The translations under genes were made by a program, and so were the position numbers. Shown here one piece after another: positions 17,061 to 64,000 of a stretch of DNA of 64,000 bases. Each line of letters starts with the position of its first letter. The stretch's first letter is position 1. The DNA comes from Squalus acanthias. Lineage: Eukaryota. The notes beneath the pieces are model-generated. The model did no database searches and was not told where the DNA came from. It saw only the letters and a list, made by a program, of their open reading frames with translations. Location: NCBI GenBank assembly GCA_030390025.1, contig CM059431.1:116438001-116502000 (forward strand). The letters are read 5' to 3'.

Positions 17061-18528
17061 TGTTTCCTGATCCTCCTCAGATGATTAAAATAACTATTAA
17101 AAAAATAAGATTTTTAGTCATAATCAGAGCTATTTAAGTCATCAAGGACACCCCTCAGTCACTTGATATGTATTTTCCAAACCTCTATTGGTGACTTTCC
17201 AGAGTGCCAAAACCTCTTCATGCAGTAATCTTCTGATGTTCCTACGTAGGGTATTTTAGACCTGTATACCCTCTCCCTCAGATAGCCCTCCATTTGGGGG
17301 GTACAATCTCTCGTTCATCCCAATCCAACTCTAAAAAGACAATGGCCACAATGGGAAAAACAAATGTTGCCAACCTCTTGTTCCATTTTCTACCATTTAT
17401 ATCCCACTTAGTCATTACCTCAGTGTAATTTATATCTCCATACCAGATATCTAATTGGAGAATCCATCTTAGCTATTGCTGGATCCAGCCACATATTAGA
17501 ATCCTTAATTGCAATTTTTGACCGACTGTTGAAAAAATTAAACATATTAAATTAACTATTAATCTGCCTTGAGAAATTTCTATGCTTTTTATTAGCACGA
17601 TCGCTAATTTTGTGTATAATGATTTGAAGGCTAAATGACGACATGAACGAGTGAAGTACGTCAGGTTAACAACAAATAATGAAAGAAAGAAATATACAAA
17701 TCACTGAGGTACCAAAATAGAGAAATATTAAGAAGGGGATGACTTAAATCAGAGCTAATTGTCTCATCAGCCCACGAGGGGCAGTTACTTTAGGTTTCTA
17801 CTAATTAATCCAATTTAATTTCATCAATACATGGTCTCTGAGGCAGATAATAGCAGTGTAATCTCTGTAGTGGTGGAACAAAAATGAGCCTTAACCAGGA
17901 CCTCAAATGATACTATCCTTATGTTATCCATTGATTTATACAATAGATATCTCACAGCTCTTGTGTACATCACCAGAGGGTCCTTTTCCTATTATACTAC
18001 AATGTGTGACCTCAGGTTAACTGTATTGTCAATTAGTTTCCTAAATTCTACATTAGCGCTTTCTTTCGGTGTAACATTTTACTGCAGATTACAACTTGTA
18101 CTCAGATATTAGTTCCTAAAAGAACTGGCCATTGGACATGCAGGAACCAAGCAGAAGGTGAGATTGTTGTGAGTTTCTGCATAGCAACCAGAAGGCCTTG
18201 AGACCAATGGCCTGTCCCGCAGTTGCAGGCCTCTGTCCTTCTGCACTATTTCTAGTTGTTAGCCAATGCACTGGGGTGGGCCTGTGCTTAGGATGAGACC
18301 AGTCCATGGAAATGACCTGACCCCACAAATCTGCATGTATTGAGGTCAGGACAGACAATGCGCGTTTTGAGCATGCTGCGTCTGTTCAGCTTCCAGGCAA
18401 AGAGGAGCAGGAAGATCCTGCCGGGTTTCCCAAACATCTGCCACAACTTCAGCGGAAGATCAATGGATACACCGGTAAATGATAGAAATTAAAGCTGGGG
18501 CCTAGCAAACCATTTCCCTGCTTACTGT

Positions 18529-20166
18529 TGTAGAATTCGCAAATTATCGCGATTTGAAAATAATGAGAAAGAGACATACAGTTTCGTAAACACAGCTTTA
18601 TTTCAGCAAAATGCTGTCAGGTTTCAAAATGGACACAAGCAGCCTGTAAAATGGCCACCACGCCTCGTGGCAGAAGGTTCTAGACTTTCAGCAGGCAGAC
18701 AAGATGGCGTTTCAATAAACATTTCAGCAAGATCGGACAGGACTCAGCATATTGAGATAAGACAAGACGAGATTGTTTTGCATTTTAACACCCAAGCCAG
18801 GAATATAAGTGCTGGAATCGAGTTTTTCCATGTACAAATGAGAGTTATTGTACTGGGCAATCAAGGGGCCCATCCAAAAGACATTGATATGCAAATTCCC
18901 CACGGCTCTACGATGAGAGAGCCGTTCGCGGGTACTCACAGCAAGAATTCGGAGGCCCCAAAACGCCTCCAGGGAGACTCCTAGCCGGTTCCACAATGGG
19001 AGAAATATTAACGGATAATCAGACAGCTACAAGTATCACCGAAACCCATTAACGACAAGTACCACCCCATACAAGAAGTTTGAGCGCCAAAACATGACAA
19101 AAGATGAACATTAAGATTGGGCGGGAGATAAGGAATTACAGTACTATAACTGTAGTGTCCAAACGTCCATCTTTCTCTTATTCGCTCGACTCTTATTCCT
19201 TTGACTCGCTTCTCTGATCCGCTGATTTTCCGGGAGTCAACCTCGTGGCTTGCCGCGAAGATCTGTGGAGAGCTGGTCTGCGAAGGCCGGTAAGCGGGCG
19301 CACCATCCCGAGAAGTCGGTAAATGGTGTTGGAACCGAAGGCCCGAGAGGAGATGAGATGAGATGAGATGAGAAGAGAAGAAGATGACTACACGTGCCGC
19401 CTGAGTCAGTAAACCCCGACCGTGCCCGAAAATCGATTAACCAGTTCTTCGAATTCTATCGGCTACTCCACAACTGGTGTCGGTCCAGAAAGACTCTTCT
19501 TTGAATTTTACCGGTTAACTATTGTCGGGCATAGGAAGACTCTTCTTTGAGTTTTATCAGAGTTCCGAGGTCAACACAGATCTTCATGACAGCAGACGGT
19601 CCAGCCTGCTAGCCGGAGCAGAAGCGAGTAAACAAGTGGGGTACAGAGACCCCTGATCAACACGTGGATAGTCAGGTGCTGTGGTGAAAACATCCGAGCA
19701 GAGTTTCGGAATTCTCCGAGTTATCACGAGTGGTGAGCATGAGTCTCGATCCTACAGATCTAGATTAGGACAGGTATTGATAGGGGAGGGTTTTATGTTT
19801 TAAGGATAATTATAATGTGTGTCCCCTTTTACGATGTGTCGTGCGCTCCTCGTTTCCCTAAACCTAGTTGCATAAATGTATGTAAGTTTGTACTGTCATT
19901 AATCTGTGCTTATGACATGTATTTCGTAATCTTGAATAATATGCAATAAAGATTTTCCATTTCGCACTATTCCACCGGGTCTACTTGAGTTTTCTCTGCA
20001 TTATTGCTCTCGCACCTAAGTCCAGTGTCAGAACCGTAAGGGCGAGTGGGTCGAACCACTCACGGGTGTCTAGTTCTACCAGGCTGGCTGGAGACCAGAA
20101 CAGGCAACAAGGCCTAACCCCGCACTAGCACCCAGACTAAGCACAGAGCCACGCGAACCCCTTATA
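18529..20166 (+). mobile_element. Solo LTR, 1638 bp
   Basis: Starts TGTAG, ends CCCTTATA (the related copy ends CCCTTACA); 4-bp TSD CTGT; TATAA ~19145, AATAAA ~19945; colinear with 30658-33568 (-). Confidence 0.8.
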
Positions 20167-54900: not shown

Positions 54901-55793
54901 TATAAATGATAATGATGCTGCCTGCCCCTTTGAACTGCTGCAGACCTTTTAATCCTGCAGCTGGACACTGCTTACTGTCCTCAAATGGGAAAACTCCCAA
55001 TCAGAGGCATCAGTGATTATTATGGAAGACTCAGCACTCATAACGTTGCACCGATAATTAATTGCGCTCCACATTCCATCCTACTTTCAGTCCAACTCAT
55101 CTCCAATTGGAAAATGCAGGCTTGTGAGTGTATAGATGGCAAATAAGGACGAGATCAGGTTCAGCTGCAATGTCACTCAGTATCTGCGATTCTTAATTAT
55201 TTTTATTTATTAATTTACGGGATGTGGGCGTCGCTGACAAGGCTGGCATTTATTGCCCATCCCTAATTGCCCTTGAGCAAGTGGTGATGAGCCACCTTCT
55301 TGAACCGCTGCAGTCCGTGTGGTGAAGGTACTCCCACAGTGCTGTTAGATAGGGTTCCAGGATTTTGAGCCAGTGACGAAGAAGGAACGGCGATATATTT
55401 CCAAGTCAGGCTGGTGTGTGACTTGGAGGGGAACTTTCAGGTAATGGTGTTCCCATGTGCCTGCTGCCCTTGTCCTTCTAGGTGGTATAGGTCGTGCATT
55501 TGGAAGGTGATGCTGAAGAAGCCTTGGCAAGTTGCTGCAGTGCATCTTGTAGATGGTATGCACTGCAGCCATGGTACGCCTGTGGTGGACAGAGTGAATG
55601 TTTAAGGTGGTAGATGGGGTGCTGATCAAATGGGTTGCTTTGTCCTGGATGGTGTCGAGCTTCCTGAGTGTTGTTGGAGCTGCACTCATCCAGACAAGAG
55701 GACAGTATTCCATCACACTCCTGACTTGTGCCTTGTAGATGGTGGACAGGCTTTTGGGAGTCAGGAGGTGAGACACTCGCCGCAGAATACCTA

Positions 55794-56688
55794 GGGGGAA
55801 AAATTTGGTTGCTTTGCGCCTTCCATTAGCGCCCTAAGAGGACGCTAATGGGGCGCAAAGCAACTAGTGCCCGGGCGTGGCGATGTTTGCGCCGCTCGCA
55901 AAATTGACCAGACATTTTGTGGTGGCACTAAACACTACCGCCACAATCTCCTGCGCCCGCATCATGACATCAGTCGAGCGTGCAATGCCCGCGTAGCGCC
56001 CCGGACCAGATATTGAGTGGCGCCCCCTGCCTTTCCGCCTGCCGCAAGCAATGACAGGTTGAGGGGAACGTTTTGCAGTCGGGAAGGGACTAGGGGAGCG
56101 CTATTTAAAAGCGACCGCCTCCTGCCTTTTTTTGTTGGCGGCATTTTTGCACCACGCATTCTGAGAGAGAGAGAGATACTTCTGGAGAAGGAGTGTGAAG
56201 GAGCTGTGTGAAGGAGTTTTGGGTACTGAGCAGCACTTTGCAGGTTCATTTTTATTTGACCTTCCTTGCATCGATTTAGAAGAGACTGTGGGGGCTGCAC
56301 TCTAGTTCTTTCGCTGGGCCTCTCCAGTGTTCTTTCCAGCAGAATTGATGTACAGGTCTCTCCAGGCCGAGATTCAAGGCTGCAATGAGCAGGGTGTGGA
56401 TGGAGAGCAAGATCGACCCTCCTCTTTAAGAAGTGGCCGACGCCAATGTGTCTGTGTTCCATTGCTGACTGACATCACACAGGCTTCGCCAGCGCTCTGA
56501 GATAACGCCTCACTCCTCGGCGTTAGCACTTTAAGAGAGGTGTATAGCACCTGATTTAGCGCTCCAATCACCTCCAGGGGCGATAGAAGCCAAGTTTGCA
56601 GTCGGAGGCGATAATTAGCGCCAGGCGCTAAACTTTGCGCCTGGCCGATAATTGCACCTCAAACGGGGCTATACCGAATTACTGCCCC
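55794..56688 (+). mobile_element. Non-autonomous deletion derivative related to the Harbinger at 2247-6416
   Basis: Both ends are colinear with 2247-2750 and 6080-6416; TIRs gggggaaaaatttggt / accgaattactgcccc; TSD CTA/GTA. Confidence 0.85.
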
Positions 56689-56767
56689 GTAGCCTCTGAC
56701 CTGCTCTTGTAGCCACAGTATTTATATGACTGATCCAGTTAAGTTTCTGGTCAAAGATGACCCCCAG

Positions 56768-56886
56768 TGTAAAGGAATAGCCATATTTCAGTAAAATACA
56801 CCATTCTATGAAAGAATTCTGATTTAAACATGACATACTGGGTTTGAAAATTTAAAAGCCTCAACGACACAAAGCTGTAAACAGCA
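56768..56886 (+). repeat. 5' LTR remnant (first 119 bp only)
   Basis: 110/119 identical to 62096-62214 by manual count, ungapped; the rest of the LTR, the PBS and the gag 5' end are deleted. Confidence 0.9.
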
Positions 56887-57411
56887 AACTAAACCTATAA
56901 TGAGATCAGAAACTAAGGATAAAAAAACCAGAGAAGGTACCCTTGGTACTCAGAAACAAGGACTGTATAGACCCAAGTCTCAAGTCCACCCCACCCAGAC
57001 ACAAACCCATGGCTCGGGACCCCCAAGAGGGTATTCCAGAAGGTTTACACCCCCAACTCGCCCACAATATGAGAACGATTTCTCCCCAGAAAGATGGGAT
57101 AGACGAGGGGCTAGACCTCGAAAGAAAGCGAAGGACAGTGGACTCCCTATGGGGACAGCTTTTACACTAGCCAAAACTATCAGAGAGCCATGGGAGGATA
57201 TCGGGAAAACCGATATGGGGATCAAAAAGATTCCCGGCAGAATCAACATCCACCTCAACAGGAGGATCGTTAAGATAATAAACAGTCCGACAAACCCCCT
57301 AAGGGATTTGAAAAACATGATACCCCCAAGAGGGAGGAACAAAAATCTGTTAAAATAATTAAAGACAAAGCAGCAAATGAAACTCAGGATTCTGAGGATG
57401 AGCAATCCCAG
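56887..57411 (+). pseudogene. gag: gag C-terminal remnant (Gly/Arg/Pro-rich, no Cys-His box seen)
   Basis: GSGPPRGYSRRFTPPTRP...RWDRRGARPR immediately upstream of the protease. Confidence 0.55.
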
Positions 57412-59620
57412 GTGCCAGGGCCTCTTGAATTCCCCTATACCTTGGCAACCTTACCCACAAACACACAAGTGAAGGCCCTGTTTGATACGGGAGCTGATTA
57501 CACTGTAATAGATCCTACAATTATAAAAACTAAGTGGACAGATTTGGGGAGCCCAATTTGTAAAAAAACCATTAGGGGGATTCACACAAGACAAAACCCA
57601 AAATCATTAATTTTTACAAAATACCTATTAATTACATGGAATCACGATGACCCTAGATGTAGGACTGGTACCACAATTGGCCTGTTCCCTCATTATAGGA
57701 CAACCAGACATGAAACATTACCTTAAAATCTCAACCAGACCTGTAGAAGCATCCACAGACCAGGATGACAGGGAAAAACACGTTCGAACACAGCTTGATC
57801 GAACTTGCCTAGAGGGGTGAGGCAAAGACCTCCTCGAGCAACTCATTAATAGATACTACCCTTATCTACAATGCCATCCAAATCAATGTGGAAAGATAGA
57901 GCATCTCCCCATCATGGAAGATGATGATACGGAGGAGGGAATCAGACGAATACCTATGAGACCGCTTACAGAATAGCATCAAGTTATTTACTGTGATGGA
58001 TCATCAATGAAGATTAAAAAAGGGACATCCCAACAATCCTCAGCTGGGATAGGGATAGTAGTAGGGACTTTTCGAGATTCCTATTCTTTTTATCCAGAAG
58101 AATTACTGTCTATACCCCTTGGCCATAAGACAGCGCAATATGCTGAAGCCGCAGCATTACAGTATGCTTTCGAAAAGGCAGACTTTATTAAACCCACACT
58201 AATCTGTACGGATTGTGGGAAGACATTCTCCATTCGAGAATGGAGAAACAGAATTGTCAGGTGATTCATGTAAATGGGCATACAACTGGGACAGTACACT
58301 CAAAAGGAAACAGCCTTGCAGACGAACAAGCAAAACGTTCGGTCTGCATGACACCCCCTCGAGAGGGGCCTGCCAATGTTAGTGTAATCACTAGGGCAGA
58401 ACGGGCAGCCAATTCAGGATGAGGAACTGATTCAGCTATTAGACCCAACAAAAGAGAATCTACTAGGATATCCAACAAAGTATTTTTACTCGGAAAACCC
58501 TACAGGTATTGTGCTAGTTAAGTTGCCCAAGGGAAACCGAGAAGTACCCCCGAGACACAAACGAGAACAACTTGTAAAAGAAGCTCACGAGGGCATAAGA
58601 CAAGCACATTGAGGTGCCAGAACAACATTCTGCAAATTGACCCCCTAATATTGGTGGCCAGGCATGCTTAAGGCCTGTAAAACATACGTGGCAAATTGTG
58701 AGCCATGCTATTTAACCAATAAGTCATCACTAATTATTGGCTCACCATTGGCTCCTGTGAAAGCTGATGAGCCAATGGGGAAATCTTTTATTGACTTTAT
58801 TGGACCACTTCCCCCATCTTTGGGATACAGACATGTTCTCATTTGTGTAGATGGATGCACTTCCTTCTGTTGGCTGGTCCCCACAAAATCTGTTTCGGAA
58901 AACGCACTTGCCAAGGCTATTTCTGACAATTACTGTAGCTGGTGCACCCAAAATCTTACACTCCGATCAAGGTGGAGCCTTTGTCTCCAAGGTCTTCAAA
59001 GACTACTGCGAACAAAGGAGGATTGGGTTAGAGCACAGCACGCCACATCATCCGCAATCAGCGGGGCTGGTGGAACGTAAAAACCAGGAAGTAAAAAAGC
59101 TATTGGGCAAACTGTTGAGAATCAGGGGGGAATAAGTGGACCACCGTCATTCCGGAGGTGCAGCTATCACTCAATAATGTGCCCGCATCTGCATCAGGGA
59201 CAGTGTCCCCTAAAACTCCATATTATCTGATGTATGGGGTTGAGATGCATACACCGCTTACCCATAGTTCTTTTATTGCCTCTACACACTCTGAGTCCTT
59301 GACCCGACAGCGACAGTTAGATTTAAAAAAAGAAGTAACAGAGGAGATTCATCGAATTGATCAGAGGATAAGGGAGGCAAATAGGCAGAAAAAATTGACA
59401 AACAAAGCATGGCAACCCCTAGCAGGAGAATGGGTAGAGGAAAAGAAGTTCGAGCAAAAACCTGGATTGAGACCGAAGTGGAAAAAACCTGTTCAAGTAC
59501 ATTCTGTTATTAACGAAAGAACAGTTCAAATACATATTAACCAGCCGAATGGCAAGCATATTCTTAAAACTGTCTCCATAGACAATCTCAAAAGATGTCC
59601 TGCGGGATACCAAAATGAAG
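57412..59620 (+). pseudogene. pol: pol: aspartic protease, RT N-terminus (core deleted near 57910), RNase H, integrase
   Basis: ALFDTGADYTVI; LINRYYPYLQCHPNQCGK; YCDGSS...SAGIGIV...SIPLGHKTAQYAE...HVNGH...GNSLADEQAK; YWWPGM...CEPC...FIDFIGPLPPSLGY...PKILHSDQGGAF...STPHHPQSAGLVERKN...GLRPKWKKP...KTVSIDNLK. Confidence 0.93.
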
Positions 59621-60042
59621 GAACAATACAAGGTGCAGTCGTACATTGTCTTTCAAGACCCAGCTTGGAGCACGACACAGGAAATGGATGTGATCGAATA
59701 ACTGACGACCGTCAGTCAGACGGTGTCGCTGGCTCCTCTACACGATGCTTGGCAACGCATCAGGAATTGGATTCGCAAAAAGCAACAACCGAAACAAGGA
59801 AAGATTAACGCGTTACTTTAACGAAGGAGGAAGACACCGTGGATGAAGAAGGAATCAACTGAGCTCCTGGCAAGGCCTTTACGAAAACACGCATCTGTAC
59901 ACACGCCGGATCGAAGGAACAGCGTGTCAAGCTTCAACTAGTTTCAAATGACGTCTCCTTGACTCGTATGAATAACTCAACTCTACAGAACGTACATCTG
60001 CCGATTGGACATTCTAATTACATGTTGTTTCTCTACTTGCAT

Positions 60043-61905
60043 GACTAGCAAAAGCTTCTATAAATATGTAAAAAGAAAGAGGTTAGTAAAAACAAACGTA
60101 GGTCCCCTGCAGTCGGAAACAGGGGAAGTCATAATGGGGAACAAGGAAATGGCTGATCAATTGAACAAGTACTTTGGTTCGGTGTTTACTGTGGAGGACA
60201 CACACAACCTGCTGGAAATAAAAGGGGTCAGAGGATCTGGTAAGAGGGAGGAGCTGAGGGAAATCCTTATTAGTCGGGAAAAGGTATTGGGGAAATTGAT
60301 GGGACTGAAGGCTGAAAAATCCCCGGGGCCTGATGGTCTGCATCCCAGAGTACTTAAGGAGGTGGCCTTGGAAATAGTGGATGCATTGACGATCATTTTC
60401 CAACATTCCTTAGACTCTGGATCAGTTCCGATGGAGTGGAGGGTGGCCAATGTAACCCCTCTTTTTAAAAAAGGAGGGAGGGAGAAAGCAGGGAATTATA
60501 GACCGGTCAGCCTGACATCGGTCGTGGGTAAAATGATGGAAGCAATTATTAAAGATGTCATAACAGACCATTTGGAAAGTGGCGACATGATAGGTCCAAG
60601 TCAGCATGGATTTGTGAAAGGGAAATCATGCTTGACAAATCTTCTGGAATTTTTTGAGGATGTTTCCAATAGGGTGGACAGGGGGAAACCAGTAGATGTG
60701 GTGTATTTGGACTTTCAGAAGGCCTTCGACAAGGTCCCACACAAGAGATTGGTGAGCAAAGTTAAAGCACATGGGATTGGGGGTAATGTGTTGACGTGGA
60801 TTGAGAACTGGTTGGCACACAGGAAACAAAGAGTAGGAGTAAATGGGTACTTTTCAGAATGGCAGGCAGTGACCAGCGGGGTACCGCAGGGTTCGGTGCT
60901 GGGACCCCAGCTGTTTACATTATATATTAATGATTTGGACGAAGGGATTAAATGTAATATCTCCAAATTTGCAGATGACACTAAATTGGGAGGCAGTGTG
61001 AACAATGAGGAGGATGCTAGGAGGCTACAGAGTGACTTGGACAGGTTGGGTGAATGGGCAAATGTATGGCAGATGAAGTACAATGTGGATAAATGTGAGG
61101 TTATCCACTTTGGTGGGAAAAATAGAGAGGCGGACTATTACCTGAATGGTGGCAGATTAGGGAAAGGGGACGTGCAACGAGACCTGGGCGTCATGGTACA
61201 TCAGTCACTGAAGGTGGGAATGCAAGTGCAGCAGGCAGTCAAGAAAGCAAACGGAATGATGGCCTTCATAGCAAGGGGATTTGAGTACAGGAGTAGGGAG
61301 GTGATGCTACAGTTGTACAGGGCCTTGGTGAGGCCACACCTGGAGTATTGTGCGCAGTTTTGGTCTCCTAACTTAAGGAAGGACATTCTTGCTATTGAGG
61401 GAGTGCAGCGAAGGTTCACTAGATTGATTCCTGGGATGGCCGGACTGACATATCAAGAAAGATTGGGTCAACTGAACTTGTATCCTCTGGAGTTCAGAAG
61501 AATGAGGGGGGATCTTATAGAGACATTTAAAATCCTGACTGGTTTAGACAAATTAGATGCAGGCAGAATGTTCCCAATGGTAGGGAAAACTAGAACCAGG
61601 GGTCACAGTCTAAGGATTAAGGGGAAGCCATTTAGGACTGAGCTGAGGAGGAACTTCTTCACCCAGAGAGTGGTGAATCTATGGAATTCTCTTCCACAGA
61701 AGGTTGTTGAGGCCAGTTCGCTAAATATATTCAAAAGGGAGTTAGATATAACACTCACAACTAAGGGGATCAAGGGGTATGGCGAGAAAGCAGGAATGGG
61801 GTACTGAGGTAGCATGTTCAGCCATGAACGCATTGAATGGCGGTGCAGGCTCGAAGGACCGAATGGTCTACTCCTGTACCTATTTTCTATGTTTCTATGT
61901 TATGT
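60043..61905 (+). mobile_element. Young CR1 with an uninterrupted ~590-codon ORF2 segment, inserted in the provirus
   Basis: ORF to 61807 carries all RT motifs with no stop; tail ttctatgtttctatgtt; no EN or ORF1 (5'-truncated). Confidence 0.95.
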
Positions 61906-62083
61906 ACCTATCATCCTTTTAAATTGTGTTCAATTTAAAATAAGGCAAAACACTGTCCTAGGATGACTTAAAAGCAATTTTCATGTAGCACATGATTGTG
62001 AATCTCGTGAAATTAATATGCTATTGTAACCTTATTAGTAACATTGACCAAATTCTGCCCTGATGTTTTGAGCTCATTTTTTG

Positions 62084-62095
62084 GTCAAGAGGGGA
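62084..62095 (+). other. Polypurine tract
   Basis: caagagggga directly before the TG of the 3' LTR, preceded by a T-run. Confidence 0.7.
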
Positions 62096-63490
62096 TGTAA
62101 AGGAATAGCCATATTTCAAAAAAATACACCATCCTATAAAAGATTTCTGATTAAAACATGACATACTGGGTTTGAAAATCTAAAAGCCTCATTGACACAA
62201 AGCTGTAAACAGCATACAAGCTCTTGAGATAAGAATCAGTTGTTGACACTGAAACAATAGCCCTATTGAGCAGCAGGTTGGAGCTTCCAGAAAGTCTGAA
62301 GTTTTGGAAAGAGCACAATGGTATAATGTTGAGGTGTCATAAACCAACACTTCGGGAAATAGAAACACAGAACATTAAAGAAACATATGCCTTCATAAAT
62401 ATGACATCAAATGAAAGACAGGAGACATAATTCTTAATACAACCAACTGAGGTGTCTAGGGGGACAATGGTGCATCTGGTTGAAGTGTTTTTAATTTACA
62501 TGTTGTAAAAAGATACAAACAGAAGACTTTCATCAATATGACATCAATAGATGCACCAAGCAATCACATTGTTTATGTGTTGAACTTGGAACACCTAGGA
62601 GACATGAAGTCTGTAATACAACCAGCTGAGGTGACTTAAGAATTGAATAGAAGACCTTGCTAAGAATGGCATCAAATAGATACATCTGCTCCATATTGTT
62701 TTTATGATAAGTGTTGAACATCTAAAGGAGGAGACACAATTCTGAATGCTACAAGCTGAACTAATTGTAAGAATAGCAGCGGTCAACAGAAAGATGACTA
62801 AAGATAATTAGCTTACATCAGCAGAAAACTTCAAAGGATATACCCCTGAAAAAAGGGTATAAAATATAGAATTTTCAAACAGGAAGACAGAATCGCTGGA
62901 AGGGGCAGAGCGATTCGTAGCTTCAGAGACAGGCTCTGTAAGCCTACAAATCTTTGAGTCTCGGGTAATCAAAGGTATTTGATTTTGGTGGATATCCTGG
63001 AATAAGAATAAGTAAGAAATGTAAAAATGTAATGAAGTTAAGATTTGAGAATAAGGATCTCTGAGAATAAGAATTGTAAGCTATTTGTTTTTAGAACTAT
63101 TAATGTTGCGATTGAATCACCAACTGTATACTGCATGTCGGTTCTTTAATAAATCTATATATTTTTAGAATTATCTCACATAGTATTTCTGTATCAAATT
63201 CGCAAACTCAATCTCTTTGGTGAGGAGTTGCAGAATTCTGGGGGAGTTTTCCGGACCCTCATAATATCCGGAAGGTTATAGTCTAGTTAAACTTATTAAA
63301 AGTGCTATCTGGAGGACGGTAACATCTTCAGGTCGTTCCTTTCTTTAGGGAGAGATAGTCTGGACCTTTAGACCCAATTAAGCGTCTCTAGGATTTGGCT
63401 ACCTCTAACTTTAGTTGAAGGTGAACTTCTGGGGAATACGCCTGATCCGGGGTGGCCCGAAAAGGGCTAGGACTAGTAATTATCCCTTCA
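62096..63490 (+). promoter_or_regulatory. 3' LTR, 1395 bp, with U3 direct repeats, TATA box and poly(A) signal
   Basis: TGTAA...CTTCA; repeats aggagaca..(t)aatacaacca.ctgaggtg at ~62420, ~62597 and ~62729; TATAAAA ~62858; AATAAA 63148-63153. Confidence 0.85.
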
Positions 63491-64000
63491 CCAGGATGTT
63501 GATGGTGGGGGATTCGACGATGGTAATGCCATTGAATGTCAAGGGGTGGTAGTTAGACTCTCTCTTGTTGGAGATGGTCATTGCCTGGCACTTGTGTGGC
63601 ACGAATGTTACTTGCCACTTATCAGCCCAAGGCTGCATGTTGTCCAGTCTTGCTGCATGCGGGATCACGCATGAAGAATGGCCAATTGGGTGTGGTACCA
63701 GAGGATCTGTCAGTTTCCATGGAGACTTACCGAGCACAAGTCCGAGACTTCAGGGACGAAGGAAGAAAAAGGAAGATTAAAAAAACCATAATCCATACAA
63801 ATAGATGTTTTCTTCAGTACTCTAATTTCTTATGGTCCTCCAGTATTTTACATATCATTTGTTTTGTTTAATTTGTTCTCCGGATGTGGGCAACACTGGC
63901 AAGGCCACATTTATTGCCCATCCCTAGTTTTCATGGGAATGTGATGGTAGATCTTCTTTTTGGCTGGTAGCAAGAGATCATAAGAGTCAACTACTAAAGA

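Follow-up and report, generated by a model that had tools for sequence, protein, structure and literature searches.

The 64,000-nt stretch of the Squalus acanthias genome analyzed here (the window) contains, at positions 56768–63490, a retroviral insertion that begins with a short stub of a 5′ long terminal repeat (LTR), continues with remnants of gag, protease (PR), RNase H (RH), and integrase (IN), and ends with a full-length 3′ LTR. A long interspersed nuclear element (LINE) is lodged downstream of the pol remnant. We conclude that this insertion is very probably dead and non-autonomous, one copy in a foamy-like endogenous retrovirus (ERV) family that is present in high copy number in an elasmobranch genome. 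The deletions that removed the reverse transcriptase (RT) and env from this copy recur with identical junctions at other sites, and RT-bearing siblings carry Pol, Gag, protease, and primer-site features of foamy viruses, with a foamy-type env persisting at a few loci.

The insertion and its relatives in the genome

The TG at 56768 and the CA at 63490 are the termini of the element, and the sequence between them is one retroviral insertion. A first description of the locus, made from sequence alone (the original prediction), had claimed a CCAG target site duplication (TSD), TG...CA ends, a polypurine tract (PPT), a 1.4-kb LTR, PR–RH–IN order, and preservation of both ends. Direct reading bore out the duplication, the ends, the tract (62087–62095), and the order, with the DTGA, RNase H, and integrase motifs and the SH3-like domain in place. 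Both termini exist and the 3′ LTR is 1395 bp long, but the 5′ LTR is reduced to 122 bp. The description had not mentioned a CR1 LINE at about 60046–61901. In L047, a paralogous copy of the flanking repeat that lacks the insertion, the alignment of the 5′ flank ends at position 253 and that of the 3′ flank begins at 250; given this overlap at 250–253, CCAG occurs once in the paralogue and twice in the window, and the duplication is real rather than a chance match.

Relatives of the element were sought throughout the 3.71-Gb assembly, in which the window is C7:116438001-116502000, with counts that are floors (scored matches) or unverified ceilings (first-look candidates), not copy numbers. The LTR gave 55 matches at 78–100% identity (40 scored of 7119 candidates), and a 229-aa ORF covering the integrase C terminus gave 152 matches at 77–100% amino-acid identity, being matched in all 150 scored places of 1913 candidates. 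With the RT of a sibling as query, 104 matches were obtained from 100 scored, at 64–100% identity; the candidate count of 15897 for this query is inflated by other retroelements. The genome search for fuller siblings that had been proposed for this locus returned RT-bearing copies and about seven env loci. Some RT matches were only 64–70% identical (C1021:342939-344171, C29:17299508-17300704, C3686:19826-20911, and others), which suggests that further, more diverged foamy-like lineages may be present in the same genome.

Comparison with a sibling, by a two-segment alignment of pol, revealed that the window copy lacks 1265 bp corresponding to Pol residues about 113–534, the RT polymerase domain, with a 9-bp overlap at the junction. 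A 200-bp probe across this junction (window 57801–58000) was spanned end to end by all 40 scored matches (375 candidates) at 93–100% identity. Two contig pieces from sequencing runs X1 and X2 also bridge the junction, each reaching 31 letters or more to either side of it. Contigs of four sequencing runs compared with window 56300–60200 yielded short repeat pieces, none listed as bridging the joint between flank and LTR, and 20 sequencing runs under seven organism labels contained 13–39% of the sampled words; no RNA run was listed as containing them. Because 1265 is not a multiple of three, RH–IN cannot be read on from PR in the RT-less subfamily.

The interval between pol and the 3′ LTR held no env gene in the window or in the 16 siblings examined, and measures only about 430 bp when later insertions are set aside. 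Elsewhere in the genome, the Foamy_virus_ENV profile (PF03408) scored above its cut-off at 11 places, with up to 87.8 bits, in a search that used a stricter first look, and an Env piece used as query gave 21 matches from 34 candidates, all scored, that fall at about seven loci. The order of parts in these elements is LTR–primer site–gag–pol–env–LTR, with an env region of about 3.2 kb; in pol they are 89–93% identical to the window copy, in the LTR only 72–75%. At one of them, on C20, two ORFs between pol and the 3′ LTR matched Foamy_virus_ENV with 77.1 and 36.8 bits. The post-pol stretch of the window equals the env-bearing form minus about 3.2 kb, and its two halves lie about 3.2 kb apart in C20. 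A 436-bp probe across the env-less junction was spanned by 40 of 40 scored matches (492 candidates), again at 93–100% identity. One junction in all 40 implies that env was lost once and that the env-less form then multiplied.

Most copies thus carry the same 3.2-kb env deletion, and a large subset, the window copy included, also carries the same 1265-bp RT deletion. Since both junctions are common to other sites, these lesions predate the integration at 56768–63490, and the copy was already defective when it was inserted; the PR–RH–IN order describes how its non-autonomous subfamily was already built when this copy integrated. The most complete members of the family, by comparison, have an LTR of about 1.4 kb, a tRNA-Lys primer site, a foamy-type gag, and PR–RT–RH–IN, with env at about seven loci only.

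There is also a second non-autonomous class. At three loci (L023, L025, and L026), the first 38 gag codons are joined in frame to RNase H–IN at one and the same junction, whereas at a fourth, L024, gag meets RNase H close by but at another point. Two of the four loci, L024 (4952 bp) and L025 (5013 bp), hold complete elements, each flanked by a perfect 4-bp duplication. Open frames of 627–759 aa surround the integrase matches of this class, which might still encode an integrase-containing fusion protein. Two further loci have unusual arrangements. The C20 composite (L041+L042) carries at 17663–19052 an env-less-type LTR, 83–89% identical to that of the window, nested in the diverged 3′ LTR of the env-bearing element, which suggests that the env-less type was probably active after the env-bearing C20 copy had integrated. 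At C19:27146152-27152550, two family integrase matches lie 5.7 kb apart on the same strand, in what looks like a tandem LTR–internal–LTR–internal–LTR array.

The features of the window copy are collected in Table 1. Its gag remnant, which directly follows the LTR stub, had no Pfam match on its own piece. When the broken pol was read in the sibling frame, with X at the breaks, 621 of 684 readable codons were identical to the sibling. The integrase motifs lie at 58586–58609 (HH), 58697–58708 (CC), 58787–58813 (D), 58959–58976 (D), and 59070–59084 (E), followed by the SH3-like C-terminal domain at 59407–59595, which the SH3_11 profile matched within the window's own 229-aa ORF. The integrase region also contains a 9-nt purine run at 59124–59132 that is not a copy of the 3′ PPT. 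The tract itself, AAGAGGGG, precedes the 3′ LTR in six of seven sibling 3′ LTR junctions, the exception being L014, where it is degenerate. The only tandem repeats in the LTR form a small 8-bp array at 63003–63032. A tRNA scan of the window found none.

Table 1. Features of the insertion and its target site, in window coordinates.
Feature	Position	Strand	Evidence
5′ TSD copy, CCAG	56764..56767	+	Read directly; CCAG occurs once at the corresponding site in L047, the uninterrupted paralogue
5′ LTR stub, first 122 bp of U3, starts TG	56768..56889	+	92% identical to 62096–62217
gag C-terminal remnant, Gly/Arg/Pro-rich	56890..57480	+	Aligns at 91% with the 3′ portion of gag in sibling C8
Protease remnant, catalytic DTGA at 57484–57495	57484..57726	+	Pfam RVP, 21.5 bits (cut-off 20.7)
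RT-deletion junction, 9-bp overlap	57897..57905	+	Alignment to sibling Pol
RNase H remnant, private 97-bp deletion at about 58211	57977..58422	+	Pfam RNase_H on two ORF pieces (RNase H 57992–58335)
Integrase remnant	58430..59656	+	Pfam Integrase_H2C2, rve, SH3_11 (E 1.5e-9)
Post-pol stretch holding the env-deletion junction (near 59889–59920)	59657..60045	+	Comparison with env-bearing C20
Secondary insertion, 5′-truncated CR1-type LINE, 1.86 kb	about 60046..61901	+	611-aa open frame 59972–61807; Pfam RVT_1 8.8e-35
Pre-LTR stretch ending in the polypurine tract AAGAGGGGA (tract 62087–62095)	61902..62095	+	Read directly
3′ LTR, 1395 bp, TG...CA	62096..63490	+	TATAAA at 62858, AATAAA at 63148
3′ TSD copy, CCAG	63491..63494	+	Read directly; L047 comparison

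The host site of the provirus is an older LINE-like repeat on the minus strand (window 55345–56767 and 63491–63749), whose minus-strand reading frame runs on across the insertion site. Just upstream, a repeat of about 121–129 bp (window 56568–56690) has at least 38 copies elsewhere at 93–97% identity (40 scored of 1944 candidates).

Copying of the defective genomes

A script applied to 16 sibling loci recovered eight start–end pairs. Seven of them, of which two are complete short proviruses and five are solo LTRs, have perfect and mutually different 4-bp duplications (TCCT, CCAG, GCGC, CCCA, ATAC, TGTC, and TCAC). In the remaining pair (L026), a 3′ LTR on its own adjoins internal sequence, and this locus offers no valid test of the duplication. 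Among the LTR loci L002–L008, five of seven are solo LTRs flanked by a TSD. Different sites, each with its own 4-bp duplication, point to integrase-mediated insertion of reverse-transcribed genomes, and the single shared junctions imply that deleted genomes served as templates.

We propose that, after env was lost, genomes of the family would have multiplied inside germline cells without leaving the cell, and that the RT-less and gag–PR–RT-less genomes would have been copied by Gag and Pol supplied in trans by RT-bearing relatives. The deletion variants that spread appear to have three regions in common, namely the leader with the start of gag, 3′ pol (RH–IN), and the PPT–LTR region, which would be the counterparts of the regions CAS-I, CAS-II, and CAS-III of prototype foamy virus (PFV). 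In that virus, CAS-I extends from R to the first 200 nt of gag and includes the primer site, CAS-II lies in 3′ pol, and CAS-III comprises the PPT, the start of U3, and R (PMC3185757). The match between the retained parts and this packaging map is suggestive. If RH–IN acts as a cis-acting packaging region, this would explain why it survives in an element unable to make RT.

That a foamy genome can be copied within one cell has a precedent, in that Env-deficient PFV is reported to reintegrate in the producing cell, in 5% of transfected cells, as a result of late foamy reverse transcription (PMC3185757). More generally, ERVs without env reach high copy numbers, a pattern described by the “superspreader” concept (PMC10536682). 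The family here has the features of that pattern: one env-less junction in 40 of 40 scored matches, one RT-less junction in 40 of 40, about seven env loci, and distinct TSDs. The ratio of about seven env loci to hundreds of env-less candidates would fit a cell-internal route.

The same family could have taken another route, in which env-less and RT-less genomes were packaged by env-bearing helpers and the germline was re-entered from outside. This is a serious but less probable alternative. Possible helpers persist in the genome, as the env-bearing relatives that are about 89–93% identical in pol; the RT-less copies needed helpers in any case; and trans complementation has been proposed for young teleost foamy-like ERVs (FLERVs) (PMC5512871). 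Set against these points are the about seven env loci compared with at least 40 scored env-less junctions (492 candidates), the diverged LTR type of the env-bearing copies (about 72–75% identical), and the capacity of Env-deficient PFV to retrotranspose within cells (PMC3185757). None of the three is decisive.

The original prediction had taken the locus for a spumaretroviral germline integration. Its foamy-like character is upheld by Pol, by the tree, and by profiles, as described below, but an account in which a single germline infection left a complete provirus that lost RT and env by decay in place is very unlikely. The retroviral ends, TSD, PPT, and foamy-like Pol motifs of that account are all real, and some of the damage is indeed private to this copy (the 5′ deletion, the 97-bp RNase H deletion, and the LINE insertion). 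It is contradicted by the RT-less and env-less junctions, each spanned by 40 of 40 scored matches at other sites, and by a family of at least 150 integrase-bearing copies. Least probable of all the readings considered is that the copies arose by DNA-level duplication (segmental duplication or unequal crossing-over) rather than by reverse transcription and integration: some copies are in tandem, such as the C19 pair, but all seven valid sibling tests gave different perfect 4-bp duplications in different flanks, the window insertion site is intact in a paralogue, and matches are spread over many contigs.

Under the favored reading, a non-autonomous genome integrated at 56768–63490 and would afterward have suffered the private 5′ deletion, the 97-bp RNase H loss, the CR1 LINE insertion, stops, and frameshifts. 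The joint between LTR stub and gag is spanned by the window alone, the other 39 of 40 scored matches covering the gag side only. A single private deletion accounts for the loss of the leader and its primer site, together with about 1.27 kb of the LTR and roughly two thirds of gag (about 1 kb). At the RNase H deletion near 58211, the extra ~92–97 bp are present in all 14 siblings that cover the region. Stops in the sibling frame occur at 57818, 57974, 58610, and 58646, and small indels at 58413, 58927, and 59125. The window copy is dead and has no function now.

The stub and the start of the 3′ LTR are identical at 112 of 122 positions, the 10 differences corresponding to a Kimura two-parameter distance (K2P) of 0.087 ± 0.025; in two siblings with full LTR pairs, K2P is 0.035 and 0.047. 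At the rate of 0.5e-9 substitutions per site per year assumed for catshark (PMC10699275), these distances convert to about 87 million years (Myr) for the window copy and 35 and 47 Myr for the two siblings, and to half these ages at 1e-9. The 122-bp LTR clock weakly suggests that the window copy may have integrated roughly 40–90 Myr ago.

The LINE is missing from every sibling examined, including the 40 hits that span the env-less junction, and matches a further copy (L024:6207-8063) at 98.8% identity over 1858 bp; such identity marks it as a later, younger insertion, and suggests that its family was probably active well after the retroviral insertion. The best named relatives of its ORF are from little skate (78%), brown-banded bamboo shark (75%), Atlantic stingray (71–73%), and manta (61%), with no closer named protein, and bird and turtle CR1 elements are about 50% identical. 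By themselves, these relatives support an elasmobranch host and do not single out sharks, the group that the original prediction had named as probable.

Foamy affinity of the family

The affinity of the family was assessed mainly on sibling L021, which has a 1153-aa open pol frame (P0001) with RVT_1, RNase_H, Integrase_H2C2, rve, and SH3_11 domains. P0001 matched the foamy-specific protease family Spuma_A9PTase with 26.3 bits (cut-off 21), and a gag piece upstream of pol in the same sibling matched Gag_FV_central with 51.7 bits (cut-off 30). No dUTPase and no MLVIN_C domain was found among the Pfam matches of P0001. Against solved structures, the best matches of P0001 were foamy PR–RT (7o24, 2.9e-141) and PFV integrase (3.7e-78), followed by Ty3 (6e-48) and an RT of the murine leukemia virus (MLV) type (2e-33). 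The integrase core of the window copy itself matched PFV integrase at 6e-19, with HTLV-2 the next virus at 4e-9. The five Pol peptides that had been likened to PFV lie in the window where the original prediction placed them, and their foamy counterparts occur exactly in a Human spumaretrovirus/simian foamy virus Pro-Pol (P0007).

In a search of 5.8 billion proteins, the top seven matches of P0001 were Pols of exogenous foamy viruses, at 37–39% identity over 92–94% of the length (E 1e-204 to 7e-223). They were followed by a 1687-aa contig protein (35%) and a newt protein (31%), and Gypsy-type proteins appeared from 3e-51; nonfoamy matches had 23–31% identity over part lengths. A full HMMER pass over 1.84 billion representatives returned the same top two. 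Look-up added relatives in chimaera, catshark, salamanders, and frogs, and a search for shorter RH–IN relatives gave two catshark fragments only, at 38–42% identity. The 1687-aa protein (P0009), a Gag-Pol-sized frame on a public contig of 10,956 nt, is the closest full-length relative after the foamy viruses, at 35–37% identity.

We then placed the family in a maximum likelihood tree (IQ-TREE; 36 rows by 1096 columns, including the read-through of the window copy), as had been proposed for this locus. The window copy and its sibling pair at 100/100. Mammalian foamy viruses and elements of frogs and salamanders join the pair in a 17-row clade (99/94), which is nested in a 20-row clade that adds a chimaera element (the RT-bearing C. 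milii P0155; 100/100). MLVIN_C-type retroviruses form a separate clade (100/100), p58C-type sequences a third retroviral group apart, and the Gypsy outgroup splits off at 100/100. Within the foamy clade, the family, an RT fragment of catshark (S. torazame), and P0009 group together at 86/95. Two interim quick trees gave the same placement. The RH/IN-bearing Pol thus falls among foamy viruses and FLERVs and away from Gypsy, in a tree that has no named ERV-L or epsilonretrovirus row.

Features outside Pol agree. The primer site starts 2 nt after the LTR in all five sibling 5′ LTR junctions read, the window's own site being deleted. The complement of the primer site occurs 280 times in the genome, versus 0 for a reversed control, and in one of the two loci sampled it forms the 3′ terminus of a tRNA-Lys(CTT) gene. 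No CCHC (Cys-His box) motif was found in gag in three siblings or, in three frames, in the window remnant, with five of five zinc-knuckle controls positive. The 4-bp TSD, seen in the window and in all seven valid sibling tests, is also a foamy feature but not diagnostic alone; gammaretroviruses make 4-bp duplications too. PFV uses tRNA-Lys1,2 as primer, and foamy Gag has no Cys-His motifs and a Gly/Arg-rich C terminus (PMC3185757); tRNA-Lys is likewise used by most mammalian foamy viruses and by two teleost FLERVs (PMC5512871).

Three other affiliations were considered and rejected. ERV-L elements have a tRNA-Leu primer site, a dUTPase in pol, no env, and an ERV-L-type gag. In the family here, the primer site matches tRNA-Lys, no dUTPase is seen among the Pfam matches of P0001, and gag and env in relatives are of foamy type. 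A gamma- or epsilon-like (class I) origin is opposed by the lack of MLVIN_C in P0001 and by the separate clade of MLVIN_C rows (100/100). Metaviridae (Gypsy) fall in the outgroup at 100/100, with a best Gypsy-type E value of 3e-51 versus 1e-204 or better for foamy Pols. It is therefore highly unlikely that the element is a class III ERV-L-type, epsilon- or gamma-like, or Gypsy element that resembles foamy viruses by convergence. A tree with no named ERV-L or epsilonretrovirus row, the generic RVP match of the window protease, and the apparent lack of a transactivator ORF leave that reading some room. Opposing it are the separate 100/100 clades of MLVIN_C-type and Gypsy sequences, the foamy-specific Gag, protease, and Env Pfam families that exceed curated cut-offs in relatives, the tRNA-Lys site without a dUTPase match, and Pol identity of 37–39% to exogenous foamy viruses over 92–94% of the length versus 23–31% over part lengths elsewhere. 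Together, these data support the family as foamy-like by Pol sequence, phylogeny, and family-specific Gag, protease, and Env profiles in relatives.

Several points weigh against the overall reading of a dead, non-autonomous member of a high-copy foamy-like family. Because the window copy has no gag core, primer site, RT, or env, most features of the family had to be taken from siblings (about 94% nucleotide identity), and its own protease piece reaches the generic RVP profile only. With no named ERV-L or epsilonretrovirus in the tree, the exclusion of ERV-L depends on Gag, protease, and Env profiles that are specific to foamy viruses, on the Lys primer site, and on the missing dUTPase match. 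The second sampled locus of the primer-site complement (L048, C21:9962425-9962530) was called tRNA-Thr(CGT), with the same 3′ end, in a dense cluster of such genes. On C20, no accessory or transactivator ORF was seen in the few hundred bp between env and LTR, where only ORFs of at least 150 aa were examined. The size of the family is bracketed by floors and ceilings, and the age of the window copy depends on 10 differences in 122 bp and a borrowed rate. Retrotransposition, trans complementation, and the packaging-signal reading are what we infer from these comparisons, and the shared deletions could also have spread by recombination between copackaged genomes.

Known relatives and significance

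Foamy-like ERVs have been published for chimaera and catshark, as the original prediction stated for cartilaginous fishes, and the possibility that this lineage is new has to be judged against them. For CmiFLERV of Callorhinchus milii, pol is the only gene reported as detected (PMC5512871; PMC4422223), and ERV-Spuma.0-Sca of Scyliorhinus canicula is listed with 9220 nt and 866–869-nt LTRs (supplement table S4). A survey of 92 genomes included three cartilaginous fishes (PMC6001957), and a preprint on anamniote Env deals with gamma-type Env only. The family here shares host class and broad clade with both elements. It differs from ERV-Spuma.0-Sca in having LTRs of 1395 nt, a separation by published layout and not by sequence, and the named cartilaginous-fish proteins are only 35–42% identical to it. 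The lineage may be undescribed, the nearest named proteins being 37–42% identical and the catshark element compared by layout only. The literature searched, which did not extend to subscription papers or to the repeat libraries Repbase and Dfam, yielded no record of a foamy-type Gag or Env in cartilaginous fishes, nor of an amplified foamy-like family in them that lacks env or RT.

With exogenous foamy viruses (Spumaretrovirinae, such as the prototype/simian and feline viruses), the family shares Pol identity, the Gag central domain, the A9 protease, an integrase with the PFV-type C-terminal SH3 domain, the Env profile, a Gag with no Cys-His box and a Gly/Arg-rich tail, the tRNA-Lys primer site, the 4-bp duplication, and a long LTR, and its best structure matches are foamy PR–RT and PFV integrase. 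It differs from them in being endogenous, defective, high-copy, and mostly env-less, with this subfamily also RT-less, in a cartilaginous-fish host. Exogenous foamy viruses further have an internal promoter, a Pol made from its own spliced mRNA, and transactivator and accessory genes 3′ of env, where C20 showed no ORF of 150 aa or more. Teleost and amphibian FLERVs (AciFLERV, AliFLERV, NviFLERV, and 412 amphibian elements) are likewise multicopy, those of teleosts sharing the tRNA-Lys site and the proposed trans complementation (PMC5512871), and the 17-row clade that holds the family also takes in elements of salamanders and frogs. Teleost FLERVs, however, have very large genomes with extra accessory genes, whereas the genome here is simple and its env-less and RT-less derivatives are dominant.

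ETn/MusD and deleted HERV-H are non-autonomous ERV derivatives of mammals, and such deleted forms are mobilized by relatives. Mammalian superspreaders such as IAP and ERV-L also combine env loss with high copy number (PMC10536682), but those families are class I, class II, or ERV-L, in contrast to the foamy-like family of an elasmobranch described here.

The window copy itself matters only as a well-bounded, datable example of its subfamily; the interest lies in the family. It constitutes a natural experiment, in which one env loss was followed by expansion, and in which the RT-less and gag–PR–RT-less derivatives show the parts needed for copying. A more far-reaching account, which we put forward tentatively as possible rather than probable, is that an elasmobranch foamy-like lineage, unmatched above 42% identity in public protein sets, became retrotransposon-like after a single env deletion, and that its non-autonomous offspring keep just the three regions that act as packaging sequences in PFV. 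If so, mammalian and cartilaginous-fish lineages would have conserved both the packaging architecture of foamy viruses and the ability to retrotranspose within the cell.

Foamy viruses have been used to argue for a marine origin of retroviruses more than 400 Myr ago, an argument that needs cartilaginous-fish lineages. Such lineages have so far been known mostly from pol, and the gag, pol, and env found here, together with a tRNA-Lys primer site, could let deep trees use three genes. Should the more far-reaching account be correct, the family would be the first in an elasmobranch to provide foamy-type gag, pol, and env together, with which the deep foamy tree could be rooted.

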